DNA of 60,254 nt, the filler included, from Stramenopiles sp. TOSAG23-2 (taxonomy: Eukaryota): NCBI GenBank assembly GCA_900128395.1. It is 4 parts of 4 records of this genome, joined end to end, with 100 filler letters (N's around TTAATTAATTAA, not from the genome) between each part and the next. Parts side by side here need not be neighbours in the genome. Positions count along the whole stretch, not along the records: positions 45,301 to 60,254 come from LT649736.1; 3 more parts are not named here. One strand, 5' to 3'. A program made the translations under genes and the position numbers. Shown here in pieces: positions 1-60,254 of this stretch (the stretch's first letter is position 1; every line of letters starts with the position of its first letter). The notes below the pieces were generated by a model that saw only the letters and a program-made list of their open reading frames with translations, was not told where the DNA came from and did not search any database.

Positions 1-40
<40 letters not shown>

Positions 41-231
41 TTCGTAATATTTTCGTAAAAATACTTTTTCGATACAAGGATATGGCTGGCTATTTTTATT
101 CTTCTTCGTCATCGACTTTCCTCTTATACCGTCTCGCTTCTTCTCTCCCCATATCTCTCTCCTAGCCGCCCCAAAATGTTTTTTTTTTTTCACAATGTTA
201 TCAAATGTGCAAATATTTAGTAAAAATGATA

Positions 232-1008
232 TTACAAATCATTCTTTACCTTTACACCTTTTTTTGGTAGTTTTGTCTTCTTATTCTTCTTCCCCTTTTT
301 CTTTCCTTTTTTTTTCTTCTTCTTCCTCCTCTTCTTTTTCTTCCTCTTCTTTCTCCCTGTTTCACTTAATATATCTGGTAATTTATCTTCCATATCATAC
401 CTACCTTCATGTTCATTACCTGTACATAAATTCATTTTGACACATAAATCTTTTGAAAATAATCGACGTGATTTTTCATTATTCTTTTTCAAATATTTAA
501 TATATGTATAATAAATTGTCATTTCCTTATCTTCCGTCGCATCTAAACAAATGCGCGCCAATCGCTCACCATTTTTACCACCACCTTGCATCACACCAGG
601 TGTTTTTGCAACAGCTAGTCCAGGACCTGATAGAAAATTTTCATTCCCGATACCTTTAATTCCATAATCTTTGAAACTAAATTGATCACATGCTGTTTCA
701 ATTAAATCATAAATAGCAATTTCATCGATACGGACTTTATTACCATTTGTTTTTTTATTAAGTGCATTAAACAAATGATAACCTACAGCACGACAACCAT
801 CACATACCATATTATCGGGCAAAAAATTCGAGAGTCGCTCCTCTTCATTCAATACTGGTGGTTTGAATGTAAATTTCTCTTGTTCTGCAGCTGATGCAAC
901 AGAAGACGTATTATCCTTGAAGAATAATAATAAAATAATAAAAAATACATTTAATAATAAATGGTGATGAAGAAATATTATTGTAAATAATATATTTTTC
1001 TTGTTCAT
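232..1008 (-). CDS. MZB1: MZB1/pERp1-like ER saposin-fold (Canopy-related) protein
   Basis: N-terminal hydrophobic signal; CDGCRAV, C..FKDYGI, LSGPGL and GG..RLARIC motifs recall MZB1; Lys-rich tail ending in KDEL-like KNDL. Confidence 0.75.
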   Translation of the reverse strand: MNKKNILFTIIFLHHHLLLNVFFIILLLFFKDNTSSVASAAEQEKFTFKPPVLNEEERLSNFLPDNMVCDGCRAVGYHLFNALNKKTNGNKVRIDEIAIYDLIETACDQFSFKDYGIKGIGNENFLSGPGLAVAKTPGVMQGGGKNGERLARICLDATEDKEMTIYYTYIKYLKKNNEKSRRLFSKDLCVKMNLCTGNEHEGRYDMEDKLPDILSETGRKKRKKKKRRKKKKKKGKKKGKKNKKTKLPKKGVKVKNDL

Positions 1009-1451
1009 TTTATTATCTGTAATTGGATATATTTATATAAATATCAAGTACAATTCAACAAATGCAATGTTGTATTAAATTGGTAATGTTTTTTATTCAA
1101 CATATAATACAATACATGTATATATATATATATATTATAATATACTTTATTTTTAACATGTAAAAATGGCTTTAATTTAGTTGCCTGTTGTTGTTATTGT
1201 TATTGTTATAATAAATAATATATATATTAATATTATAATGTACAGAAGAAGAAGATGTGTGAGATTAAGAGAAATAGATAGAGATAAACAGAGATATACC
1301 GCTAGAACAAAACATATTACCCCATCGTCATTTTTTGTATGATTAGTAGCTCCTACCAATTATTATTATTATTATTATTATTATTGCATCATTGCATAGA
1401 TACGTTTTTTATTTGTACAATTGTTAATATATAATATATACATCTTTAATT

Positions 1452-2348
1452 ATGAATTTTAATAAATTATTAATAATACAATTCAATTTAATTATATTCA
1501 TAATTAATATTCAGCATGATATAGTATTAGTATATGGTTTGACTATCACAAGAAATGGTGTATGTAAAAAAACAATTTCATGTGAAGGTACTAGTGCATC
1601 TGGAAATGATGCAGTTGCGATGGGTTATGCAACAACTGCGTCAGGTTTAAATGCAGTTGCCTTAGGATTTAATACACTTGCAGCTGGTTCTATCACAACA
1701 GCATTAGGATCAAATACAACAGCTACTGGTGATTTTGGTACTTCCATGGGTTATAGCACGATTGCTAACTGTGGTGCAACGGAACCATCCAATTGGCAAG
1801 CATGTGTTGCTATGGGTTTTAATATTAATAATACTGAATCAGAATCTTTAGCTGTTAGTGGGAATATGCATGCAAGAAATGTAAAGTTATTTGGTAACGA
1901 TGAACGTTTTAAAGAAAATATTACAAATGCAAATGTTGAAACATGTCTATTCAATATTAATAAAATACGTGTTGTAAATTATCAATTATCAAAAAATGTA
2001 TGTAAACATCAAGGTTTCATGGCAAAAGACATGTTGGATAAATGCCAACAAGAATTAATAGGTATTACATCACAACAAGTGGGTAGTATTTTACCAAATG
2101 CAATTGGTTCTGGTATTTCTTCATTAAAATTAGTGGATCGATCACCATCATTTAATAATAATAAATCACAGGAAGATCAACATGAAGAAATATTAGAAGA
2201 TATTCATGATGTTAAAGGTCTTGATATGAATCAAATCATTGCACAATTAATTGGTTCCATACAAACATTATCAAAACAAAATGAGAAATTAATCAACCGT
2301 GTAAATAAGTTAGAAACGATGATGATGATGAAAGACTATAAGTTATAA
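1452..2348 (+). CDS. Secreted YadA-head (Hep_Hag)-repeat protein with C-terminal peptidase S74-type intramolecular chaperone domain and coiled coil
   Basis: Signal peptide; 14-aa repeats ASGNDAVAMGYATT/ASGLNAVALGFNTL/AAGSITTALGSNTT/ATGDFGTSMGYSTI; DERFKENI, IGITSQQV..ILP.A and LIGSIQTLSKQNEKL motifs. Confidence 0.8.
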   Translation: MNFNKLLIIQFNLIIFIINIQHDIVLVYGLTITRNGVCKKTISCEGTSASGNDAVAMGYATTASGLNAVALGFNTLAAGSITTALGSNTTATGDFGTSMGYSTIANCGATEPSNWQACVAMGFNINNTESESLAVSGNMHARNVKLFGNDERFKENITNANVETCLFNINKIRVVNYQLSKNVCKHQGFMAKDMLDKCQQELIGITSQQVGSILPNAIGSGISSLKLVDRSPSFNNNKSQEDQHEEILEDIHDVKGLDMNQIIAQLIGSIQTLSKQNEKLINRVNKLETMMMMKDYKL

Positions 2349-3034
2349 AAAATGTGCCTTTAGATAGCTTAAGCTCTCTATACTGGTATTGCACACAATT
2401 GTATAAAAAAAAATTGGCCATCTTTAATGTCGATAAGCACATATAACTCTTATAATTCTATATTTAATTATATATCTTTTTGGATGATTTTTTTATTATT
2501 TTATATGTGGTGGTTTTTATATATGGCAACTTTATATAAAGGTGTTGTGCGTTCTCTTAAGGTTTTTACGTTTTCGACGGATATGGGGAAATCGTGGGGG
2601 CGATTTAGATTGTATTTACCTGCTAGCACGTTTCGTTAAGTATAATGGTATAATGGTATATTCTTTCTTTTACTTTACATATCTTCATACTATAATATCC
2701 ATACCATTTACTATTATAATACTATAATGTTTTAATATTTACGATCAATATTAGTTAAAATTACAACATACAACAAACAACATGCTATCATATTATTTCC
2801 TTAAATTGTTTTTCTCTTTTTTATCCTGTGTGTCCAATGTCCAACTTTAAATCTATATACATATATATATCTTAATCTAGATTATAAGAATACATACTGT
2901 AAATACAAAAAAATAAAAAGTGATCAGCAACAACATATGTGCATATATATATAAATATACACATATATACAATATAATATATATATATATATAACCAATA
3001 AATATTAAAAGAAGAATTCAAAACATAAAAAAGT

Positions 3035-4742
3035 ATGAATGGACCATTAGCAGGAATAAAAGTCATAGATTTATGTCAATTTCAAAATGGCCCTTCTGCT
3101 ACTTATCGATTAGTTGAAAATGGTGCAGAATGTATCAAAGTCGAGCCACTTGCTGGAGATGGTTACAGGCATTTAGTACCACCCGGATACTGTAAGTAGA
3201 TTTGTTCCCTGCATAATATATATATATATATATATATACGTACATTACTCTCTAACATAGCGCATAAATCTATAATATACATCACACAGGGAATGGTGGT
3301 TTTGAAGGATTTAACCGTGGTAAAAGATCACTAGTATTGGATTTAAAAAATCCAGAAGCAAAAGATATTATGATTAAATTATTAAATTGGGCTGATGTGA
3401 TATGTAATAATTTTCGACCTGGTATTATGGATAAATTAGGTTATTCGTATGAATTTTGTTCATCAATTAATCCAAAAATTATATATGCATCTAATTCAGG
3501 TTTTGGTGATAAAGGTGATTGGGCAGAACGACCATCATTTGATGGTGTGTCACAAGCATTTTCAGGTGTATTGACACAACAAGCTGGTGGACCAAGTCAA
3601 ACACCAGTACCGGTTGATTTTGCATTTAGTGATGAAAGTGGTGCCGCAAATTTTGCATTTTCAATTGTCACTGCATTATTAGCACGTGCACGTACAGGAA
3701 AAGGACAAGAAATTGTTACAAATCAAACTGCTGCTACATTGCACTTTTCAAGATTTATGATACATAATGCATTTGTAAGTAAATTTTCTTTCTTCAACTA
3801 TATGTGATAAATCTATACATATATAAAATATATAAATTTAACACACACACATTAACATTAACATTACATCATTCTCTCATTTTCATGCTATATATATATA
3901 TATATACACAGGTCTACGGTCAAGATGATGAAGGAAAAGGACCATTGGATCGTGATATGGGGCAACGAATGTATCAATGTAGTGATAATAAATGGATTGT
4001 GGTTGCATGTTTGCAAGTTAGGCAAGGTATGCGTTTTGTACGTGAAGTATTGGAAATACCGCATCAAGATGGTGATTTTAGTTCTGATACAGTAAGTAAA
4101 ATTTTTTTTTGTAAATTCAATGATATATATATATATCTTTTTTCTAACACATGCATCTCATCATATTATATATATATATATTAGGCATTGTCCCGTTGGC
4201 CACAAATAACACCAGAAACAAAAGAACTTAATTTAAAACGATTTAATCATATTATAAAAACAAAACCTCAATCATATTGGTTAGAGAAATGTTTAACTGG
4301 TAATGTCCCATGTGCACCTGTTTCAACATATGAAGATTTGCAAAAAGGTATGCAAACAGAAGTTGGCAAACAGGCAAGAGTCAATGATTGGATCGTAACA
4401 AGTAATCATCGAGATTATGGAGATGTGGATTTAGTAAGCAATCCAACCAGATACAATGGCACGCCAAATCAACCAATTGGGGATGGTGATGAAGTGACAC
4501 GCCATGCACCGAAATTAGGTGAACATTCGATTGATATATTGAAAAATGTCTTAAAATATGATGAAAATGATATTCAGCGTATACAAAACAGTGGTGCAAT
4601 TGAACCAACTGGTGCATGGTCAACGGAAAAAATACCATTAAAACGTATTGAACGTGTGAAAAAAATGGTACAAGATAGAAGAAATTCAGCACTTCATGAT
4701 GGTGATGGACATCAAGGAGGAAATGGTCGATCCAAATTGTAA
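3035..4742 (+). CDS. CoA-transferase family III (CaiB/BaiF), 4 exons: 3035-3191, 3290-3774, 3912-4091, 4185-4742
   Basis: Spliced product reads MNGPLAGIKVIDL...GAECIKVEP...NRGKRSLVLDLK...ADVICNNFRPG...APKLGEHS; GTAAGT donors, YAG acceptors and CTAAC branch points restore the frame. Confidence 0.92.
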
Positions 4743-5501
4743 ATATTTAGTCAATATATATATATAAATGCAATAACAGCACACACAGGCACAACATATA
4801 TACGATAGAAATATATATCATATGTGCGTATGAAAATATGATTTTTTTTTTGTTATTAAATATTTATAATGCATATAGATAACAATTATATAGCCATATT
4901 TTCAATTTTATATATATAGGTGCGAATATTGTACTTGTATCGATAAGAGTGTATTAGAATATATTAATAATACTATAACATGCCACACACATACACACAT
5001 GCCACATTTTATCTTATTATCTTATGCTATATTATATATTTGTGTATAGTGTGTACATAGTATAGTGTATAATGTATAGTGTATTAGTATAGCTGGGGCA
5101 AAATCCTTTGATGGGCCATTGTAATAATTAGCTGCTATGACGTGCTATATATTTAACATAGCAGTACTATTGAACCGCATCCTCCCACATCCTCCCAATA
5201 ATAAATACTCACACACATATATATCGGGATATACATATATATATACTAATAATACACACAGGAGTATATATATATATACTTTACATGAGTACAGTTGTTC
5301 TCTTCACTATATTATAGATACTAGTGTGTATATAATTAGTATATATATATGTACATTACAACCTTCTATTTTACATATATTCATTTATCTCATCTAGACA
5401 GAAATTATTAGCTATTATACATCAGCAGATAATATACCGTTAATATATATATATATAGATATATATACACATTATAGATACATATAATAATAATTGACAA
5501 A

Positions 5502-6509
5502 ATGCCAAAACAATCAAAAGATAATAAAAAAAAACCATCTTCTAATACCTCTTCTACCTCCTCCACATCCAATAATACCAACAACAACAACAACAACAAC
5601 AAAAATACAAATGAACGATATTCTGCATATGGTACAAATGTAGAGGAGGAAGAAGCTAGCTTAATTAAACGCTCATCGAAATACATACGTAGCAATATTA
5701 ATAATTACGAAAAAGAAATATCATATAGATGGAAAATATTTACTAGTATTTTTGAGAATTTATCGTTAATGTGTTGGTTATTAATCGGTTTTTTAATATT
5801 TGCATGTTTAATAGTAATGGTATTAGCAGAAGGTCGGAATCGAAACAACCCATTAGTCACGGGTGTAGAAACGGCTATTGCCGTTCGGAAAGGGGATACA
5901 GATCCAAGGGCATACCAATTTAGTGTATTGGAAAATGGCTTACAAATTTTGTTAATATCCGATCCAAATACAGACAAAGCAGCTGCAGCAATGGATGTAC
6001 GAGTTGGACATTTTAGTGACCCCGATAATATACCAGGTTTATCGCATTTATTAGAACACATGTTGTTTTTAGGCACAGAGAAATTTCCAGAGGAAGATGC
6101 ATTTGATAAATTTTTATCACGTCATGGTGGAATGTCAAATGCATATACATCGAAAGAAGATACAAATTATCATTTCGAAGTCTTACCAAATGCATTGGAA
6201 AAAAGTTTAGAAATGTTTGCATCGTTTTTCATTGCACCATTATTAACACCAGAACGTATCGATAGGGAACGAAAAGCAGTTGATTCAGAAAATGAAAAAA
6301 ATTTACAAAATGATGATTGGCGATTTACACAATTATTACGTAGTACATCAAATAAAAACCACCCATATCATAAATATGGTACTGGTAATAAATATACACT
6401 GAAAGATTTTGGTGGTGGTGGTGGTGATGGTAGTAATAATCCAAGTAATACAAAAAATAACACGAATCATAATAATGATAAATATGAATTAAAACAACAG
6501 CAACAACAC

Positions 6510-10512: not shown

Positions 10513-11289
10513 TTACAAATCATTCTTTACCTTTACACCTTTTTTTGGTAGTTTTGTCTTCTTATTCTTCTTCCCCTTTTTCTTTCCTTTTTTTTTCTTC
10601 TTCTTCCTCCTCTTCTTTTTCTTCCTCTTCTTTCTCCCTGTTTCACTTAATATATCTGGTAATTTATCTTCCATATCATACCTACCTTCATGTTCATTAC
10701 CTGTACATAAATTCATTTTGACACATAAATCTTTTGAAAATAATCGACGTGATTTTTCATTATTCTTTTTCAAATATTTAATATATGTATAATAAATTGT
10801 CATTTCCTTATCTTCCGTCGCATCTAAACAAATGCGCGCCAATCGCTCACCATTTTTACCACCACCTTGCATCACACCAGGTGTTTTTGCAACAGCTAGT
10901 CCAGGACCTGATAGAAAATTTTCATTCCCGATACCTTTAATTCCATAATCTTTGAAACTAAATTGATCACATGCTGTTTCAATTAAATCATAAATAGCAA
11001 TTTCATCGATACGGACTTTATTACCATTTGTTTTTTTATTAAGTGCATTAAACAAATGATAACCTACAGCACGACAACCATCACATACCATATTATCGGG
11101 CAAAAAATTCGAGAGTCGCTCCTCTTCATTCAATACTGGTGGTTTGAATGTAAATTTCTCTTGTTCTGCAGCTGATGCAACAGAAGACGTATTATCCTTG
11201 AAGAATAATAATAAAATAATAAAAAATACATTTAATAATAAATGGTGATGAAGAAATATTATTGTAAATAATATATTTTTCTTGTTCAT
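10513..11289 (-). CDS. MZB1: MZB1-like protein, duplicate copy
   Basis: Protein identical to 232-1008. Confidence 0.75.
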   Translation of the reverse strand: MNKKNILFTIIFLHHHLLLNVFFIILLLFFKDNTSSVASAAEQEKFTFKPPVLNEEERLSNFLPDNMVCDGCRAVGYHLFNALNKKTNGNKVRIDEIAIYDLIETACDQFSFKDYGIKGIGNENFLSGPGLAVAKTPGVMQGGGKNGERLARICLDATEDKEMTIYYTYIKYLKKNNEKSRRLFSKDLCVKMNLCTGNEHEGRYDMEDKLPDILSETGRKKRKKKKRRKKKKKKGKKKGKKNKKTKLPKKGVKVKNDL

Positions 11290-11732
11290 TTTATTATCTG
11301 TAATTGGATATATTTATATAAATATCAAGTACAATTCAACAAATGCAATGTTGTATTAAATTGGTAATGTTTTTTATTCAACATATAATACAATACATGT
11401 ATATATATATATATATTATAATATACTTTATTTTTAACATGTAAAAATGGCTTTAATTTAGTTGCCTGTTGTTGTTATTGTTATTGTTATAATAAATAAT
11501 ATATATATTAATATTATAATGTACAGAAGAAGAAGATGTGTGAGATTAAGAGAAATAGATAGAGATAAACAGAGATATACCGCTAGAACAAAACATATTA
11601 CCCCATCGTCATTTTTTGTATGATTAGTAGCTCCTACCAATTATTATTATTATTATTATTATTATTGCATCATTGCATAGATACGTTTTTTATTTGTACA
11701 ATTGTTAATATATAATATATACATCTTTAATT

Positions 11733-12626
11733 ATGAATTTTAATAAATTATTAATAATACAATTCAATTTAATTATATTCATAATTAATATTCAGCATGA
11801 TATAGTATTAGTATATGGTTTGACTATCACAAGAAATGGTGTATGTAAAAAAACAATTTCATGTGAAGGTACTAGTGCATCTGGAAATGATGCAGTTGCG
11901 ATGGGTTATGCAACAACTGCGTCAGGTTTAAATGCAGTTGCCTTAGGATTTAATACACTTGCAGCTGGTTCTATCACAACAGCATTAGGATCAAATACAA
12001 CAGCTACTGGTGATTTTGGTACTTCCATGGGTTATAGCACGATTGCTAACTGTGGTGCAACGGAACCATCCAATTGGCAAGCATGTGTTGCTATGGGTTT
12101 TAATATTAATAATACTGAATCAGAATCTTTAGCTGTTAGTGGGAATATGCATGCAAGAAATGTAAAGTTATTTGGTAACGATGAACGTTTTAAAGAAAAT
12201 ATTACAAATGCAAATGTTGAAACATGTCTATTCAATATTAATAAAATACGTGTTGTAAATTATCAATTATCAAAAAATGTATGTAAACATCAAGGTTTCA
12301 TGGCAAAAGACATGTTGGATAAATGCCAACAAGAATTAATAGGTATTACATCACAACAAGTGGGTAGTATTTTACCAAATGCAATTGGTTCTGGTATTTC
12401 TTCATTAAAATTAGTGGATCGATCACCATCATTTAATAATAATAAATCACAGGAAGATCAACATGAAGAAATATTAGAAGATATTCATGATGTTAAAGGT
12501 CTTGATATGAATCAAATCATTGCACAATTAATTGGTTCCATACAAACATTATCAAAACAAAATGAGAAATTAATCAATCGTGTAAATAAGTTAGAAACGA
12601 TGATGATGAAAAACTATAAGTTATAA
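11733..12626 (+). CDS. YadA-head/S74 chaperone protein, duplicate copy
   Basis: Identical to 1452-2348 except the C-terminus (MMMKNYKL versus MMMMKDYKL). Confidence 0.8.
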   Translation: MNFNKLLIIQFNLIIFIINIQHDIVLVYGLTITRNGVCKKTISCEGTSASGNDAVAMGYATTASGLNAVALGFNTLAAGSITTALGSNTTATGDFGTSMGYSTIANCGATEPSNWQACVAMGFNINNTESESLAVSGNMHARNVKLFGNDERFKENITNANVETCLFNINKIRVVNYQLSKNVCKHQGFMAKDMLDKCQQELIGITSQQVGSILPNAIGSGISSLKLVDRSPSFNNNKSQEDQHEEILEDIHDVKGLDMNQIIAQLIGSIQTLSKQNEKLINRVNKLETMMMKNYKL

Positions 12627-30109: not shown

Positions 30110-30209
30110 NNNNNNNNNNNNNNNNNNNNNNNNNNNNNNNNNNNNNNNNNNNNTTAATTAATTAANNNNNNNNNNNNNNNNNNNNNNNNNNNNNNNNNNN
30201 NNNNNNNNN
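30110..30209. other. Artificial scaffold junction
   Basis: N run with TTAATTAATTAA. Confidence 0.97.
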
Positions 30210-30963
<754 letters not shown>

Positions 30964-43736: not shown

Positions 43737-45200
43737 TTATAATCTCTGCTGCTGCTTCTTTTGCTTTGTTGGTCCCGTATTATATGCACCTGGAACGCAT
43801 GGACATATTCTACTTGCTTCTGGACTTTTATCACTACAATCACTTTTTTTCCCTCCTCCTGGATTATCATGTATACAAAATCCTTCCTCTTTCTTCTGAC
43901 TTTCTTGTAGAATCAATGCTGGAGTATATCCTTTGTTTGAATATTTTGTATGTGTTTTACAACCTGCAGGACAATCGATAAGTGAGGTAATACGACTGCA
44001 ATCATTTAAATATTGAAAGCCTTCTGATGCACATTTACTTTTATCTGTATTACTACATACTTCATCACAACTTAAACCTTTTGTCCCAACTAATATTTCA
44101 ATATGCCCGGGTAAACTTCTTTGTTTACCACGATGATAACCATATTGCACCAATGCACCAAATGTCCCTACACCAGCTTCACATGGAGACATACCAGCCA
44201 TTGCACATTTTTGTTGAAACGTTTCTTGTTTCATCCATGAATTTACCTTCAATTTAGAACCACAATTACCAACATGACGTTGCCCCCTATCTGAAAAAGT
44301 AGATTGTTTTCCTAAATGTTCTAACATATTATATTGCAATACTCGAAATGGATTTACATTACGACGTGGGTCACCAAATTGTCGCTTACCTTGACTATTG
44401 ACAGCGGAAAAATATTCCGTAAACAAAAGATCAACTGGCATCATATTTTGATTTGTCATTAAATAATGAATAAACGGTGGAATTTCAGCACATTTAATTA
44501 CAATACCACTCATACCTACCCCAACTCGAATCGTTGACCAACCACGTTGATCGGCTCTTAAAATAGCAAATTTAATCATATGCATACCTTGTGGGCATAA
44601 TTCAAAATCATCCTCTAAAATTAACATATTTTCACATNNNNNNCAAAAGTGAAATGACATCTCGTGTTTGTTGTCTTGGACGAATTTCTGGAGATAAATT
44701 TGGTTTATACCTCCAACCACGTGGCAACTTAGGATCACACCGAACAGGGTCTTTTTCAATAAATTCAAATGTATCTTTGCCTTTTTCATGTAATTGAAAT
44801 TCTTTTTTTATCCTATTAAATACAAGATGAGTTTTTGGCCTGAAATTGACCACTTTAACATGAGCCGCACCGTTACTAAATGGATCTCTTGTATTTGGAT
44901 GTGGTAATTGATCACGCAATGCACGTACAGTACGAGCTAAATATGCCAAGTTATTTTTTCGTGGTATCGTACCAATAACAATTTGTAACCATCGTTTTGA
45001 TTTAAAATTCGGTGGTCTAATAATACGATCTTTATTAAATTTTTTTTCAAAACCAAAATATGGGTCTTCACAACTAAAACATGCATCTTCTCCATATTCT
45101 TTGATAGCTGTAGCACAATCTTTTGCATCCCATGTAGGTGGTTTAAAAATCCCTTGTGATTCTTTTTTTGTAGCCGGAATAGCAGCAAAAGTTACACATA
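43737..45200 (-). CDS. MGAT4/GT54-like glycosyltransferase with MGAT5-type C-terminal Cys-rich domain; 5' end cut, frame broken by the N gap at 44638-44643
   Basis: Open frame from the scaffold edge reads WLQIVIGTIPRKNNLAYLARTV; then LILEDDFELC, EHLGKQST, GLSCDEVC...F..LNDC...RICPC. Confidence 0.75.
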
Positions 45201-50305: not shown

Positions 50306-52965
50306 ATGAGCAGAGGATATCATAATGGTCAAATGATGCAGCCAAATAATATGCAACAACCAGGTCAAATACCAGTACAAATGTCACTTGGTACACCTAA
50401 GAGTAATCAACAACAAGGTGGTTTTGGTATGAATAAACAAATGGGTAGCAGAGGTATGCCAATGCAACAACTTGGTAATATGAACCCAAATATGCAACAA
50501 CAACAAATAATACCAAATAGCGCAAATAGCCAACGTATACAACATAGTTCAGGCTCGCTCCCGGTCTCTCGTAAATCTTTATCTGCAAGTTTCTCTAGTT
50601 CCATGCGTGGTTCCACTGCCGGTAGTAATTGGGATAACCAAACGGGTTTAAATGATGACGATAATGTAAGAGTGGTTGTACGTTGTAGACCTATGAATGA
50701 AAACGAACGTAATCGTAATGATAGGCAAGTATTGTATGTAGAAGAAAGTCAAACTGCCGTTACCTTGCGTGCACCGGGTGGTGGAGGGCGTGAAGTGATG
50801 AAAAATTATCGTTTCAACATGTGCTTCTTACCAAAAACATCGCAAGAACAATTTTTCAACAATTGCGGTATACGAAATTTATTAGATTCTGCTTTAAATG
50901 GATATGCGGCAACTGTATTTGCATATGGTCAAACTGGTAGTGGAAAAACATTTACTATTTCGGGTATTGAGGAACGTATAAGTGATGATACGAGTGGATC
51001 GCAATGGGATGGTTTGATACCACGTAGTGTTCGTTATGCATTTGAACGTATAGCTGCCAGTCAAGAAGGGACAACATATAGTGTACGTGCATCATTTGCT
51101 GAAATTTACAATGAACAAGTATATGATTTGTTAAATTTACAATCTGGACCATTGCAAGTACGTTGGAATATACGTAATGGTTTCTTTGTACAAGATTTAT
51201 TTGTAGTGGAATGTGAAAATACAAGTGATGTCATGGCTGTAGTGAAAGAAGGACATCGAAACCGTCGTGTTGGTTCACATGAATTGAATATGGATTCATC
51301 ACGTTCACATAGTTTATTAACATTACATTTGGAAAGTGAAAGTATTGATTCAGATGATGGTAAGTATTATCTTGTTTCGGATTTGTTTTTTGTCATATTA
51401 TATTATATTATTACATATAAATATCATCATACTCGCTATATTTATATCATATATATATATACTAACATTATACATATATACACACAGGACATACCATGGT
51501 GAAATTTGGTAAAATGGTATTTGTGGATTTAGCAGGTAGTGAAAGATTGAAACAAACACAATCAGATGGTGTTACACGTACGGAGACGGGTATGATTAAT
51601 CAATCGTTATTTACATTAGGTAAAGTTATTAGTGCATTAGGCAGTAAAAACAAAAATAAAAGTAAAGATTCCAAATTTGTTCCATATCGTGATAGTAAAT
51701 TAACGAAATTATTAATGGATTCCCTTGGTGGTTCATGTTTAACACTGATGGTTGCATGTTGTTCCCCATCGGAAGCATATATGGAAGAAACATTATCTAC
51801 CTTGAATTATGCAACACGTGCACGTAATATTCAAAACAAACCAATGATACAAATGGATCAAAAGGAACAATTGATTTTTAATTTAAGGCAAGAGGTTAAA
51901 TTATTACGGTTGGAAAATGATTTTTTACGACAACAATTATCGATACATAATGGTGGTGTCATTCCATCTAGCCCATATACAAGTGGAAGGAGTGAAATTG
52001 GTACTCCATTGAATGGGACGATGACACCACGATCACCTGGATCTGCAATTGGTAAAAATAAACCAGGAAAAGGTGGTGCAGGTCCACCTGGATTGCCATT
52101 AAGTCCACAAACGCAAAACAATGGTAGTGGTGGTGGTGCATATAGCAGAGCACCACCACATCATGTACCGCCATTAAGTGGACCACCAAATAGCAGCAAT
52201 GGTGGTGGAAAAGCGTATAGTAGTAATAATGATGGCAATGGTCCACCTGGATTGACGCAAGCGCCACCACCTGGAATAGCACCGAAAACAAACGGAAGAG
52301 GAGTACGAGGTCCTTCCCCACGTGCGCCTAAAACAAAATCATCGGTTACTGATACGCAAATGCAAAAAATGTTATCTACGTATAGACGCGAAATTGAACG
52401 TTTGAAAACGGAAAATCGTGAAGTACGTGCAAGGGGTAGCGTAGCAGAACGTGGATATCGGGCAGTTATGGCGGAAAATGAACGTTTATGCAATAAATTA
52501 GAACATTTGGAAGAGATTTTTGTTCATCAATCACGACAAACACCATGGCCAAAAGGAGAGGAAGGTGGTCAAGGTAGTTCCAAGAAAGATAGTGGAGAAT
52601 GGGAAAAGAAAATTGATGAAGGTGGTAAAGATAAATTTATACGTAAAATGAAAGCGGAAAATTCATCTTTACGTATACGTGTTCAACGATTAGAAAAAAG
52701 CTTGAAGCAAGGGGAAGGTAATAAATTCCGACAAATTGATCCAGAAAAGAAAAATAACCGTGAAAGTGAACGTGATGTCATTGCATTGCAAAAAATGAAC
52801 GTGGAATTGCAAAATAGGTTAGAAAAATATAGGAAACGTGAAATGGAATTATTACGTGCATTGAAAGCACAACAGGCAAAGGCACAGCGACGAAAAGTTC
52901 AAGAAAGTAGCAATAACCCAGTGCAACGAAGAAGTAATAGTACATTGCAACAACAAAGTCAATAA
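50306..52965 (+). CDS. KIF12: Kinesin, KIF12/kinesin-16-like; exons 50306-51359 and 51488-52965
   Basis: VRVVVRCRP, AYGQTGSGKT, SSRSH, FVDLAGSE, PYRDSKLTKLL; a GTAAGT...CTAAC...CAG intron restores the frame (DDG-HTMVKFGK). Confidence 0.9.
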
Positions 52966-53749: not shown

Positions 53750-54649
53750 ATGGCATCATTAACAACTAATCCATCACTGGCAAAACGACAACGTACGTCG
53801 TTAAAACCATCTACAATTGAAGGGTTAAAACAAAAACGGGCACCACCACCAATTACAATTGGTATATTAGTTTTACCAGCTGGAATAGAATCTGCTTGCG
53901 GGATCATGTTAAATATATTACAATATTTAAATATTCGATCATTATGTAATGTGAAACGATCTTCTTTAATACAACAATGTAGGAAAGCATTTGGATCAAA
54001 TGATTTTGAACGTGTACGTGATATAGCATTGTGTCTTAGTTATGAAGGTAGAAGAAGTATAAATGAGTTGATACTTTCACATCCAGCAAGAAGACTTTAT
54101 TTATTAATTGAAAGATATAAAAGAGAGTTTCCACGTAGGACACCTTTCGTATGTGCATGTGAACGCGGACGTATGAATGATGTAGAATTATTTGTGAATC
54201 TTCACCCTTTTCACAAGTATATTACTAATCGTGATGTGAATGGCTACAGAGATGATATGACATTGAAAGATATGGTGAGTCAAGTCGGTACAAATAGTTA
54301 TGATAATGATCGTACACCTTTAATGGCAGCTGCAGGACACGAACATTTCCAAGTAGTTAAATATTTGATTGAACAAGGTGAAGCTGATCCTAATATTGCA
54401 GATAGTTATGGATATAATGCATTACATGATGCAGCAGAGACTAACAGAGCAAATACTGAGTTGATTCAATTGTTATTAACTCATATGCCTCTTGATAGTA
54501 TTAACAAGAAGACGTCCGGGGGAAACACTCCCCTGGACAATGCATATCGATATAATGGTAGTCCAATTCAACAAGAGATCATTGCACTTTTACGTTCAAA
54601 AGGTGGAAAAGCAAATAAATTTGATGCAAATGGTAATCGTATAGAATAG
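53750..54649 (+). CDS. Ankyrin-repeat protein, tandem paralog 1
   Basis: TPFVCACERG, TPLMAAAGHEHFQVVKYLIEQGEADPN, NALHDAA, TPLDNA. Confidence 0.88.
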   Translation: MASLTTNPSLAKRQRTSLKPSTIEGLKQKRAPPPITIGILVLPAGIESACGIMLNILQYLNIRSLCNVKRSSLIQQCRKAFGSNDFERVRDIALCLSYEGRRSINELILSHPARRLYLLIERYKREFPRRTPFVCACERGRMNDVELFVNLHPFHKYITNRDVNGYRDDMTLKDMVSQVGTNSYDNDRTPLMAAAGHEHFQVVKYLIEQGEADPNIADSYGYNALHDAAETNRANTELIQLLLTHMPLDSINKKTSGGNTPLDNAYRYNGSPIQQEIIALLRSKGGKANKFDANGNRIE

Positions 54650-55106
54650 TCCAATTCAACAAGAGATCATTGCACTTTTACGTTCAAAAGGTGGAAAAGC
54701 AAATTGTTATGATGAAAATGGTAGAGATGTAGGAAGAGGCAATGGTGATTTAAATCATTAAAAAAGGAGAGGAGAGATTGGGAAAAGGGGAAAAGATTAA
54801 AACACATATAATTAAAAACATAAATATCAGCAGTATGTATCTTTTCAAAATTATAACATTTCAGAGTGTAATTAAGTTCTCCTCTCTTTACAACAAGAAA
54901 TGTGTTTTGACTCTGCCTGGTCTGATTAAAATGGTCTTCGTGTTGGTCTTTTTCAAATTAATAGAAAAGTGTTGGTCTTTTTTATTAAATACATCATTAT
55001 ATATATATAGTAATAACATAATGAGTGACAAAAAAATATAAACATATATATACAAATATAAAAGAACATATTGAATATATATACATATATTATATTACAT
55101 TACATC

Positions 55107-56048
55107 ATGGCATCAACAATTACTAATACAACACAAGCAAAACGACTAAAGCAATCAACGGTGAATGCATTACAACAAGAACCGGAACGGGAAATTACAA
55201 TTGGTATATTAGTTTTACCAGCTGGAATAGAATCTGCTTGCGGGATCTTGTTAAATATATTACAATATTTAAATATTAGATCATTATGTAATGTGAAACG
55301 ATCTTCTTTGATACAACAATGTAGGAAAGCATTTGGATCAGATGATTTTGAACGTGTACGTGATATAGCATTGAGTCTTAGTTATGAAGGTAGAAGAAGT
55401 ATAAATGAGTTGATACTTTCACACCCAGCGAGAAGACTTTATTTATTAATTGAAAGATATAAAAGGGAGTTTCCACGTGGTACGAGGCGCAGAGATGCAA
55501 TACCAACACCTATCGTATGTGCATGTGAACGCGGACGTATGGATGATGTCGAATTATTTATGAATCTTCATCCTTATCACAAGTATATTACTAATCGTGA
55601 TGTGAATGGCTACAGAGATGATATGACATTGAAAGATATGGTGAGTCAAGTCGGTAAAGATAGTGAAGGTGTTGAATGTACACCTTTAATGGTAGCTGCA
55701 TGGGGCGAACATTTCCAAGTAGTTAAATATTTAATTGAACAATGTGAAGCTGATCCTAATATTGCAAATAGTGGTGGATGGAATGCATTACATTATGCAG
55801 CATGGAATAACAGTACGAATACTGAGTTGATTCAATTGTTATTAACTCATATGTCTCTTAATAGTATTAATAAGAAGACCAGGACGGGATTTACTCCCCT
55901 GGACTATGCATATGCTAATAATCGTAGTCCAATTCGCCAAGAGATCATTGCACTTTTTTACGTTCAAAAGGTGGAAAAGCAAATTATTATGATGAAAATG
56001 GTAGATATGTAGGCTAAGGAGATGGCAATGGTGATATTTAAATCATTA
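55107..56048 (+). pseudogene. Ankyrin-repeat tandem paralog 2 with 3' frameshift
   Basis: High identity to paralog 1; a T6 run replaces T4 at ~55954 and shifts the conserved LLRSKGGKAN tail out of frame (ORF stops at 56012). Confidence 0.6.
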
Positions 56049-57524: not shown

Positions 57525-58245
57525 TTTTTTTTTCGACTCTTAAAAAATCTTTGTTTCGTTAACTATTTTTTTCGTAGTATGTATATTGCTATTATGTAAG
57601 TATTATTTCTTTCGTTGTTATATATAGCTGTAGATGCTTTTTCTATTCTTTTTGTATTATCTATACTCTCTTCTATTGTCTCTTTGCATAGATATATTAA
57701 TATATATTCAATTTTGTTGTTTGAAATTTTTTTTGGATATTGGATATGGTTAGTAGTAGGGTTTTACGTGGGGTATTCTAATTTCCCATTCAAGTATAAA
57801 TTATGTGTTATTTGAATGGGTAATAGTAATGCTATGTACATCCTAAATGCCCAAATCTATAACCATTTACCTCCTACGATTATTTAAACAAGTTAAATTA
57901 TTATAAGTGCATAAGTGCATAACAACTTCTTGAACTGTGCAACTATATTACTATACTTCACACATTTACTTCTAAAAAAGATTGTTGCAAGGATAATAGA
58001 ATTATTGCCTCTCAGGTTAATACATTGTTCTTTTGGAGAGAGTAGAAAATTTCTCATGAGTAAATTTTACGAGCATACTCTGTGGTAATATTTTTACACA
58101 ATCAATGTTAAATTATATTTGAATAATATATATGATATGATAACTTAGATTTTAACCATCTTAAATAATCTCACGAATACTATCATAACATAAGAAGAGT
58201 GTTTTTGTAAAAATCATAATCACATACGAAGCGAGTTCGTAAATT

Positions 58246-60254
58246 TTATCTACACCAACCTCTATAATTGATAAGAATATCTTTATGCGTTTCTAAATGA
58301 GCATTAAGTAACTCATCTTCATATGTATTCGTGTCATATTCTAAACACCATTTTGTTATACTAGTTACCGTAAAAAATGGACAAGTACTGAAACCGTAGC
58401 TTGTGTAAAAAAAAGGTACAGCCCACAAAACTTTCTGATACTTTGGTGAAGTTCGTAACCCTACACTGTCATTTATAAAAAAGTAAGTGCCATCTTTTAA
58501 CATACGCGTAACGTACTTAGTATGTCGTTGTCGTGGAATACAATCTAATAATCCCGCTTTAAGAAATCGCTCGTCTTGATTTCTTCCTAAAATTGGTTGG
58601 CAAAGCGGTTTCATATCCTTCAATGCTTGGCATTTTACTCTGATCCCAATACCTCCACCCATTACACCATTTTCAGACTGTTTGTGTTCTTGATAACGCA
58701 AAACATCGCTATTGTCATCCATTAGCCAAGACTCTACTTTTTCCATATCTGATTTACTTAAGATACTATCCACATCTCGTGTTATACATACATCAATTGT
58801 TTGATCTACAAGTGGACGATATCGTTCTACCATAGGATTCAAACCATCACGGCATTGTATCAATTGAATAGGGTGTGTTTTTGATGACGTTGCAACTTTT
58901 TGTACAAAACTTTTAAGTACGAGATTATCTTGAACCGATTTATCAATATACAATCGCAATTCCCAATCAGGAAACCATTTTTCAGCCGCTTTCACATTAT
59001 AACGTAAACCAATAAGATATTCTGGTAATCTTTTCAAGTTGTTCATGTCAGCGTACAAACACCATGCTATAACTTTACGAGGAAATTTTGTATTAATTTT
59101 TGATTCGTCACTATTGGTGCTGATATAGTCGCTAGAAATAACACTTTTACAATTATTAAGTGCATATAACTTTGCAGTAACTTCAATTCTCAATTGTTTG
59201 TGTTCCATATCATTTTTTTTGTTTGAATTTGGTAATTTTTTAATGGTTTGAGGAATTTTATAATTCTGCCTTTTCTCAAAACATTGTAAAGTCGTATCCT
59301 TTTTTATTTTTTTGCTGGTATGAACAATATTACTGTTCTTTTGTTTCCTGGTTGGCATGTTCTTACGTTTACCAGATTCCATCATCGGCATCTTCCCATT
59401 ACCATTACCACGGTCACTTTGTCTTCTACCAATATCCATAGTATTATTATTATTACTACTATTACTACTTTTATTATTACTACTACTATTATCATTCATC
59501 CCACCACGTAAACGTAAAATAAGTTGTATCGTAGATTCTTTTTTTATATTGCATTCTACAACTGTGGATCTATCCTCTACGTCTTTGCCATTAAAAATTA
59601 ATCGTTGTGCACTTGGTGGGATACCTTCTTTGTCTTGAATTTTACGCTTTAATTCAAGAATCGTAGTTGTCAATGTAACATCATGTAACACAAGGAGTGG
59701 GCTACTTATTGGCTTCACAAATATTTGAAATGTATTATGGATGTAAGTATCGATATCCTTTACTTTTGAATAATTAAGTAATAATTTGTTGCCCACGATC
59801 GACTCCAAATACGCAGCTACTTCGGTATGACCTTTCGCTCTTGCCACATCCAACGGAGTACGGCCATTATCACAACATGTGGTCGCATTCAATCCCCATT
59901 CGATACCGAGCACGACGGAGTCTATCTTGCCATTCCACGCCGCCGCCCATAACATGGTTGCTCCTTTGTTTTCCCCACTTGTTAGTACAACGTCGGTGTT
60001 CGCGCCGCATGCATATAGCGACTTCATTACATCGAGATGTCCTTTTTGTGTAGCTATGTATAAAGGTGTACATCCATTTTTAATTGCTTGATTCACATCG
60101 ATACCTTTTACCTTCAAAAGCATCGATACAATCTCGTTATGGCCTTCCCATGCTGCCATCCATAAAGGCGTTTGTCCATATTTATCTGCTTGGTTCACAT
60201 CGATACCTTTTACCTTCAAAAGCGTCGATACAATCTCTGTATGGCCTTTCTCTG
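58246..60254 (-). CDS. Ankyrin repeats + ubiquitin domain ending LRLRGG + low-complexity/NLS linker + putative GT-A-like domain; 5' end outside the window
   Basis: Frame open to the window edge; ankyrin TPLWMAA/TPLYIA/TPLDVA; ubiquitin at 59500-59730; KVIAWCLY...[11 protein letters not shown]...RY.PL.D...D..ITRDVDS...MGGG. Confidence 0.88.

Follow-up and report, generated by a model that had tools for sequence, protein, structure and literature searches.

A diverged ubiquitin-like domain ending in Gly-Gly joins ankyrin repeats to a GT-A-fold domain in a marine protist gene

Deubiquitinases cleave the precursors in which ubiquitin is fused to a ribosomal protein, and both products are thereby obtained in equal amounts. 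Non-canonical ubiquitin fusions, some of them with the ubiquitin internal, are reported in the main text of Sibbald et al. (2019, PMC6332867), with 22 fusion genes in Bigelowiella natans and 10 in Guillardia theta. For another protein, TUG (ASPSCR1/UBXD9), Bogan (2022, PMC9556833) outlines endoproteolysis, by a specific protease and in particular animal cell types, into an N-terminal ubiquitin-like modifier, TUGUL, and a C-terminal product that enters the nucleus. The present study analyzes a gene at the end of a stretch of 60,254 nt, filler included (hereafter the window, meaning the whole stretch analyzed), which joins four parts of the Stramenopiles sp. TOSAG23-2 assembly GCA_900128395.1; the part that holds the gene comes from LT649736.1. 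A single frame encodes, in order, ankyrin repeats, a connector, a ubiquitin-like domain, a Met, a basic low-complexity linker and a C-terminal domain with the glycosyltransferase A (GT-A) fold. An earlier inspection of the DNA letters alone (the sequence-only reading) had proposed that processing after the Gly-Gly end of the ubiquitin-like domain would release an ankyrin-bearing modifier and a separate enzyme.

The locus adds two new partners to a known class of non-canonical protist ubiquitin fusions. As in the Bigelowiella natans and Guillardia theta genes, ubiquitin-type sequence is in frame with non-ribosomal partners in a marine protist, in a form easily missed by automatic annotation (PMC6332867). 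The partners appear to differ, since the words “ankyrin” and “glycosyl” are absent from the main text of that paper, the supplementary file of which may list further partners. In contrast to the near-canonical ubiquitin described there, the domain in the window is diverged and lineage-specific (57% identity to ubiquitin), and the module that contains it occurs behind two different N-terminal regions. The Gly-Gly end followed by another polypeptide is shared with ubiquitin-eL40, ubiquitin-eS31 and polyubiquitin precursors, which the same paper gives as background. In ubiquitin-ribosomal precursors the ubiquitin is N-terminal and almost invariant, whereas here an ankyrin region lies ahead of it, the domain starts with Phe and identity is as stated. 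An animal protein, ANKUB1, also combines ankyrin repeats with a ubiquitin domain, in the reversed order and with no known enzyme domain. The likeness to TUG is restricted to the mechanism that the sequence-only reading proposed and implies no homology; no UBX or other TUG family was present among the nine Pfam families matching the window protein at E ≤ 1. In the literature consulted, no ubiquitin-glycosyltransferase or ankyrin-ubiquitin fusion of this type was found described.

The fusion gene and its reads

The frame occupies 668 codons (58246-60252) and is open at its 5′ end, past the end of the window. With a stop probability of 0.079 per codon calculated from local base composition, a stop-free run of 668 codons would be expected by chance at P ~1e-24, and the 140-codon linker alone at P ~9e-6. 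The fusion is in one frame of genomic DNA, contigs of an independent DNA run bridge two of its junctions, and the module is found again at a second locus, L001; the gene is real, its source being an A+T-rich marine protist. Pfam and translation bear out the three-part architecture given by the sequence-only reading, and all of the motifs it listed are present in the translation, after correction of the strand, the gene being on the minus strand.

The ubiquitin-like domain matches PF00240 (E 7.9e-18; 64.4 bits against a cut-off of 25.4), and in a phmmer search it aligned end to end with the ubiquitin chains of solved structures (E ~4e-20; 43/76 residues identical, 57%). Residues kept include K6, K27, K29, K33, K48, K63, R42, I44, R72, R74 and Gly-Gly; K11 is lost, L8 and V70 are conservatively replaced, Phe replaces Met1, and one residue is inserted in the first hairpin region. 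Near-identity to the 76-residue sequence of ubiquitin proper was therefore not found. Ubiquitin is almost invariant across eukaryotes, and because the identity is 43/76 the domain is best classed as a diverged ubiquitin-like paralogue and not as ubiquitin itself. NEDD8 is about as distant from ubiquitin as this domain is. The length of 77 residues and the intact LRLRGG followed directly by Met were as first described; the Gly-Gly end with a next residue that is Met, not Pro, is what a processable precursor would have, and LRLRGG then Met is also found in L001 and in a third locus, L002. When the last ankyrin repeats and the ubiquitin-like domain were modeled together from the single sequence, the mean pLDDT (predicted local distance difference test) was 40.4, too poor to use. 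Beyond the Met, the linker passes from an Asn/Ser run to a basic stretch resembling a nuclear localization signal (59296-59373) and then to a variable part.

The ankyrin region consists of tandem repeats of ~33 residues that match Ank_2 (E 2.3e-26) and, in four stretches, Ank (E 5.7e-23). The count of at least five repeats was upheld for four complete ones, the fifth being cut by the end of the window. Two units described as near-identical, the 102-nt tandem units at 60032-60133 and 60134-60235, are only 79% identical in DNA. A G+C-richer block noted at the same time is real, at 0.43-0.52 in 150-nt windows spanning 59750-60049, compared with 0.27-0.35 on its 3′ side and 0.39-0.40 towards the window end, and its recovery in DNA and RNA contigs of independent origin excludes an assembly artefact. 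Both had been offered as cues to recent shuffling; neither the likeness of the units nor the block is on its own evidence of that. A word-based search, of limited length range and sensitivity, for relatives of the ankyrin/ubiquitin junction (residues 96-203) returned one weak ankyrin-only match among 128 candidates.

Besides a possible source run (X1), 28-50% of the sampled words of the stretch were found in each of 13 marine, seawater or aquatic metagenome DNA runs from ten studies, and 11-14% in each of six RNA runs, of which four carry a poly-A or oligo-dT label. Read contigs were compared for one independent DNA run (X2) of the 14 with part of the stretch and for three of the six RNA runs, all poly-A/oligo-dT (X15, X16, X17), X1 being excluded. 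Run X2 covers 28 of 30 bins; its contigs bridge the connector/ubiquitin junction (59607-59763) and the linker/enzyme junction (58697-59165), and one lies in the ankyrin part (59800-60070). The RNA runs cover 18, 10 and 13 bins, with exact contigs in the ankyrin region (59814-59964, X15), over the linker/enzyme boundary (58924-59154, X16) and in the enzyme (58393-58543, X17). Contigs of X15 and X16 cover the linker at 59213-59420, and those of X15 tile 59213-59420, 59501-59580 and 59561-59709, the only gap being a region masked as repeat. A 151-letter RNA contig that aligns at 59501-59580 has exactly 71 letters over on the masked side, which fits a bridging transcript and shows none. Other RNA contigs are 90-97% identical and may stem from paralogues. 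No splice-like joint was reported in the gene save one within the ankyrin repeats, which looks like a repeat artefact. Bins at 57800-57963 are uncovered in all four runs, so that the control for DNA carry-over into the RNA libraries is weak. Peaks of depth at 59604-59685 and 60096-60177 were set aside as conserved ubiquitin and ankyrin paralogues of many organisms, uninformative on this gene. Continuity across the domain junctions, on which the sequence-only reading depended, was thus found in part: in DNA at the connector/ubiquitin and linker/enzyme junctions and in RNA at the latter, but in none of the listed RNA contigs at the ankyrin/ubiquitin junction (59730/59731).

Related loci and the boundary at the Gly-Gly site

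Metagenome contigs were scanned with a 16-sequence alignment, and six loci were confirmed among 78 pattern matches. In four of these (38-46% identity) the enzyme stands alone: ubiquitin is absent, and a stop or start codon lies just ahead of the enzyme. The other two, L001 (enzyme part 89% identical) and L002 (83%), have a ubiquitin-like domain, a Gly-Gly-Met-Asn junction, a linker and the enzyme. L001 has a frame of 1124 codons and a different N-terminal region, which is of low complexity with Cys/His-rich zinc-finger-like motifs; the sole Pfam match there, to zf-C2H2_4, falls short of the cut-off (E 0.006; 17.6 of the 27 bits required). L002 is likewise of the L001 type but has decayed, with frameshifts, a 32-nt deletion and a truncated enzyme end. 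It was considered as a ubiquitin without N-terminal partner, and this was ruled out, as its upstream DNA is 90-93% identical to that of L001 and is a broken N-terminal region of that type.

Identity between the window and L001 changes sharply along the gene. The blastn match begins at 59736, in the last two connector codons before the ubiquitin-like domain, and there is no match upstream. Within the ubiquitin body 154/210 nt are identical (73%), in the ubiquitin tail 27/30, and in the linker (59432-59223) 195/210; the enzyme and 467 nt past its stop, where the L001 contig ends (59105-57779), are 92% identical. The first 94 linker codons have 80% protein identity. Nei-Gojobori estimates of synonymous (dS) and nonsynonymous (dN) divergence follow the same course, with dS 0.58 and dN 0.30 in the ubiquitin body, 0.24 and 0.035 in the 13 codons of the tail and Met-Asn, and 0.086 and 0.056 in the enzyme; dS is 0.045 in the first linker part. 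The ratio dN/dS is 0.65 for the enzyme and >1 for the first linker part, both values being noisy with so few differences. One of the 13 tail codons differs, and the tail LRLRGG-Met-Asn is the same in both, which indicates constraint on the tail.

The ubiquitin-like domains of the window and L001 are 57% identical to each other. By eye they have in common approximately eleven states not found in ubiquitin (Phe1, the insertion, and positions 26, 28, 49, 54, 56, 58, 59, 67 and 68), and because of these shared derived states they are read as old paralogues of one lineage-specific subtype, not as separate captures of ubiquitin. Given ~92-93% identity downstream, 73% in the ubiquitin body and none upstream, the pattern of divergence makes the Gly-Gly junction a recombination boundary. 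The simplest reading of these sequences is that two older genes, each with its own N-terminal partner, recently underwent exchange or conversion of the unit past the tail (linker, enzyme and 3′ flank); L001 may come from the organism of the window, as a paralogue, or from a close relative, as the corresponding gene. Recent domain shuffling had been proposed before, and it is sustained here by the L001 module behind an unrelated N-terminal region and by the shift in divergence at the tail, and not by the cues originally given for it.

Searches for further fused relatives were negative within their reach. A word-based search of limited sensitivity with residues 370-668 was restricted to proteins 367-1169 residues long; of its 874 candidates, not one reached E ≤ 1e-3. 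In a collection of viral contigs no relative was found, fused or not: 0 of 2 pattern matches were confirmed in a single-protein scan and 0 of 24 in an alignment scan.

Several observations were made around these loci. The L001 linker contains, at ~3250-3790 (+), tandem ~34-residue repeats in which Ser, Asp, Asn and Phe abound; the window copy lacks them, suggesting that the second half of the linker is freely expandable. Upstream of the decayed copy in L002, at 3-2489 (+), lies an 828-residue Cys-rich protein with a weak match to IBR (RING-between-RING) below the Pfam cut-off (E 9e-4), which by this resemblance may be ubiquitin-ligase-like. The window has two tandem paralogous genes at 53750-54649 (+) and 55071-56012 (+) with C-terminal ankyrin repeats (Ank_2 E 1e-17 and 2.8e-31) and an N-terminal conserved stretch that is F-box-like by eye, with no Pfam F-box match. 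A relative of these, 76-78% identical, adjoins the ubiquitin-like/enzyme copy in L002, at 5425-6204 (-), so that the two gene families are neighbors in both assemblies.

The C-terminal domain

The C-terminal domain matched no Pfam, NCBIfam or PHROGs family and was not placed in a named glycosyltransferase family by any of these. Among 1.84 billion representatives, searched exhaustively with HMMER, there were 526 relatives at E ≤ 1e-3, 25 of them at E ≤ 1e-30, the best with E 3.6e-61, 45% identity and 282 residues. Close relatives are stand-alone metagenome proteins of ~260-330 residues. Names were uninformative in all 23 relatives from a word search, four of them being “hypothetical protein”. 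In a protein atlas, the top three clusters shown were likewise “hypothetical protein”, a common Pfam family was found in 0 of 30 matches, and named clusters occurred only at scores ≤ 0.90. When 41 aligned family members were compared with Pfam at E ≤ 1, no family matched more than one member. All 41 have G65, N69, R127, R142, D143, D145, G183 and D210 (numbered by position in the 318-residue query), with S146 nearly invariant, and all eight invariant residues are present in the window copy. Among 33 distant relatives scanned, 22 had no Pfam family and 10 had a glycosyltransferase-type match elsewhere in the protein, some below the Pfam cut-off and often with ricin-type lectin domains; partner families were GT25, GT2, NodZ, O-FucT, GT1, Anp1, Exostosin and Fringe. 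Proteins with several glycosyltransferases are typical of giant viruses, and these distant relatives share that architecture.

The fold is clearer than the family. An AlphaFold model built on the 41-sequence alignment had pLDDT 88.8 and pTM (predicted template modeling score) 0.84. Foldseek against the PDB gave 278 matches at E ≤ 0.001, and the rows listed were all GT-A glycosyltransferases. Comparison with 48,161 representative chains by VIA-align gave 125 chains at Z ≥ 8, and glycosyltransferases were the best 23 among the 50 rows listed, with the N-acetylglucosamine-transferase domain of heparosan synthase 2 (8viw_A) at Z 13.4 (root-mean-square deviation 3.5, 181 residues aligned), Skp1 alpha-galactosyltransferase AgtA (6mw8_A) and KfiA (5z8b_B) at 11.9, and LgtC (1g9r) at 11.3. 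These four aligned over 177-204 residues and likewise have a D-x-D after the fourth strand. In the model, RDVDS stands directly after the strand at 138-141, the fourth, and with R142, D143 and D145 invariant it behaves as a D-x-D motif, the site for metal and nucleotide sugar in such enzymes. The resemblance of this domain, with its RDxDS motif, to an uncharacterized GT-A-like family had been suggested on inspection; the comparison that could have found no GT-A similarity at all found it. Sequence identity to the solved GT-A structures is, in contrast, only 9-14%, the family profile matched no solved chain at E ≤ 10, and the single sequence matched none either. For the modeled domain the GT-A fold is secure, but this does not extend to the CAZy family or the chemistry, many GT-A families being tied within ~2 Z and nucleotidyltransferases of related fold reaching Z ~10.

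Among viral models in BFVD, the best structural matches were uncharacterized giant-virus proteins, from Aureococcus anophagefferens virus (E 1.4e-11) and then Mimivirus LCMiAC01, Tupanvirus and Catovirus (down to 2.7e-8; 15-22% identity), and none of those checked was fused to ubiquitin or ankyrin repeats. Because no signal peptide or membrane anchor was seen by eye in the window protein, seven relatives and four stand-alone loci, the enzyme is probably soluble and cytoplasmic or nuclear; AgtA resembles the window protein in this lack of an obvious anchor.

Table 1. Features of the ankyrin/ubiquitin-like/GT-A-fold gene, in window positions.
Feature	Position	Strand	Basis
Ankyrin repeat region	59773..60254 (frame translation 59773-60252)	-	Pfam, translation
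14-residue connector, last ankyrin repeat to ubiquitin-like domain	59731..59772	-	translation
Ubiquitin-like domain, 77 residues	59500..59730	-	Pfam PF00240, phmmer
LRLRGG and Met	59497-59517	-	translation
Gly-Gly-Met junction, presumed deubiquitinase cleavage site	59497..59505	-	sequence
Met codon after Gly-Gly	59497-59499	-	translation
Linker, 140 residues	59080..59499	-	translation
GT-A-fold domain, unnamed family, presumed soluble glycosyltransferase, 277 residues	58249..59079	-	HMMER, model
RDVDS (DxD) motif	58765-58779	-	translation
Stop codon	58246..58248	-	open reading frame listing, translation
3′ flank conserved with L001, possibly 3′ untranslated region	57779..58245	-	blastn

The window is nuclear DNA of an A+T-rich protist. 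Its G+C content is 24-36% per 2 kb, and its other genes are cellular and eukaryotic, encoding alpha-tubulin, kinesin, Rad52, an alanyl-tRNA-synthetase-related protein and an ATG27/mannose-6-phosphate-receptor-like membrane protein. The kinesin gene, at 50306-52965 (+), is formed by two overlapping open reading frames parted by an A+T-rich stretch that resembles a retained intron, which is evidence of spliceosomal introns in this organism. Translations of alpha-tubulin and MGAT4-like genes, at 30154-30957 (-) and 43737-44789 (-), contain runs of X, which show assembly gaps (N) within genes. There is also a segmental duplication, at 232-2348 and 10513-12626, with copies ~10.3 kb apart. It holds a minus-strand reading frame of 258 residues that is identical in both copies and a plus-strand one of 298/297 residues in which differences between the copies are confined to the region of the C-terminus. 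The plus-strand product combines YadA-head repeats with a Peptidase_S74 (endosialidase chaperone) domain, unusual in a eukaryote.

Proposed cleavage after Gly-Gly and its alternatives

The reading that we prefer is that the protein is a ubiquitin-fusion precursor, in which cellular deubiquitinases would cut after Gly-Gly. The cut would free a Met-initiated enzyme with its basic linker from the ankyrin/ubiquitin-like part, both products would be made in equal amounts from one mRNA, and the freed enzyme would work as a cytoplasmic or nuclear glycosyltransferase, with a nucleotide sugar as donor, a divalent metal and a presumed acceptor. The model is suggested because the tail and Met-Asn persist in paralogues despite 43% residue divergence between their ubiquitin bodies, because integral ubiquitin-like domains usually lose the Gly-Gly, because the residue after Gly-Gly is not Pro, and because the boundary of recent exchange coincides with the Gly-Gly site, as would be expected if the two halves work apart. 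Cleavage after Gly-Gly is plausible on these grounds and we lean slightly towards it; for the whole statement, i.e. that this is a real gene for a GT-A enzyme that is processed from the fusion, we estimate a probability of approximately 0.5.

Several points weigh against this reading. Cleavage is a prediction made from the sequence. A single mRNA for all of the parts is presumed: none of the listed RNA contigs crosses the ankyrin/ubiquitin junction, and the stretch at 59430-59500, which holds the Gly-Gly/Met junction, was masked as repeat in the read comparison. The N-terminus of the protein lies beyond the window and there is no start codon inside it. The ubiquitin-like domain has two prolines in its first hairpin, together with the insertion and the 57% identity. 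Position 44, in the hydrophobic patch that many deubiquitinases use, is Asn in L001 and L002, with I44 kept in the window copy. The enzyme dN/dS of 0.65 and the decay of L002 suggest that the family may be under weak constraint, and the GT-A fold is shared with other enzymes, IspD, GlmU and other nucleotidyltransferases scoring Z 9.5-10.2 in the same structural search.

Part of this evidence would be accounted for if the ubiquitin-like domain were never cut and were an integral domain of one large protein, e.g. a docking site for the proteasome or for ubiquitin-binding proteins, with the ankyrin repeats bringing substrates to the tethered enzyme. Internal ubiquitin-like domains are common in multidomain proteins, a tethered targeting domain would give the fusion functional sense, the domain has 43/76 identity to ubiquitin only, with the insertion and loss of K11, and Asn44 in the two relatives would weaken recognition by many deubiquitinases and by the ubiquitin-activating enzyme E1. 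Such domains are, however, usually without a Gly-Gly tail, LRLRGG-Met-Asn is identical between bodies that differ so much, and exchange of the N-terminal partner exactly at the module would be tolerated more easily if the halves act apart; this alternative is possible and to be taken seriously, but we judge it rather unlikely. Alternatively, the enzyme could be made alone from the Met after Gly-Gly, by an internal promoter or internal initiation, with the upstream ankyrin/ubiquitin-like frame separate or vestigial. That would be consistent with the Met in 3/3 copies, with the stand-alone form of all of the more distant relatives (~280-290 residues, stop or start just upstream), with a 72%-identical fragment (P0020) that has a Lys-rich N-terminus and no ubiquitin, and with the lack of any RNA contig seen to join the ankyrin and ubiquitin parts. 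We nevertheless consider it doubtful, as neither the window nor L001 has a stop between the parts, against an expectation of 0.079 per codon, and as the tiling of X15 RNA, with its gap only at the masked repeat, fits a transcript running from ubiquitin into the linker. A recent functionless chimera of a multi-copy family, decaying or kept as a neutral duplicate, would explain the broken state of L002 and the noisy dN/dS values of the enzyme and first linker part; long intact frames in both the window copy and L001, retention of the eight family-invariant residues, exact contigs in poly-A RNA libraries and partial presence of the stretch in 13 further DNA runs from ten studies all make this improbable.

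The identity of the enzyme and the origin of the gene could also be read otherwise. The C-terminal domain may be a different enzyme of the nucleotide-diphospho-sugar-transferase fold, e.g. a sugar-phosphate nucleotidyltransferase, which the scores of IspD and GlmU would allow and which no match to a sequence family of tested function contradicts. Against it are the top structural ranks of glycosyltransferases, both in VIA-align and in all of the listed Foldseek rows, the invariant D-x-D after the fourth strand, and the fusion of distant relatives to GT25, GT2, NodZ and O-fucosyltransferase-type domains and to ricin-type lectin domains, so that we regard it as an unlikely reading. Finally, the gene might lie within giant-virus DNA integrated in the protist genome, since the best viral structural matches come from Aureococcus anophagefferens virus and then from relatives of Mimivirus, Tupanvirus and Catovirus, and since ankyrin-repeat gene expansions are common in giant viruses. 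Two scans of the viral contig collection found no relative, the neighboring genes are cellular and, save for one block of ~300 nt, G+C is like that of the rest of the window; such an origin is very improbable.

If the fusion is processed as a precursor, the fate of the ankyrin-bearing product may also be considered. N-terminally tagged ubiquitin is conjugated, and by analogy conjugation of this product through its Gly-Gly end would be possible in principle, although the idea is speculative and in our view unlikely. More broadly, and just as tentatively, a private ubiquitin-like domain could serve as a cleavable, recombination-prone joint that hooks a glycosyltransferase cassette (linker, enzyme and 3′ flank) behind interchangeable partners, from which host deubiquitinases would release it. 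The ankyrin partner would be left with a Gly-Gly end through which it could be attached to targets, becoming a large, target-recognizing modifier comparable to TUGUL in animals.

Ubiquitin fusions beyond the two ribosomal ones are still few, and their possible logic includes an aid to folding, a defined N-terminus or equal amounts of two proteins. The locus provides a natural experiment, in which one cassette follows two N-terminal regions unrelated to each other and the recent exchange is bounded at Gly-Gly, and it makes directly testable the idea of a ubiquitin-like domain as a modular, cleavable connector between genes. If there is no cleavage, the locus would be an ordinary multidomain enzyme with an internal ubiquitin-like domain. 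The enzyme itself belongs to a large GT-A family, of 526 representatives, that is unnamed in any family library and extends over protists, giant viruses and phages; as this family appears to be soluble, it is a candidate for glycosylation in the cytoplasm or nucleus.

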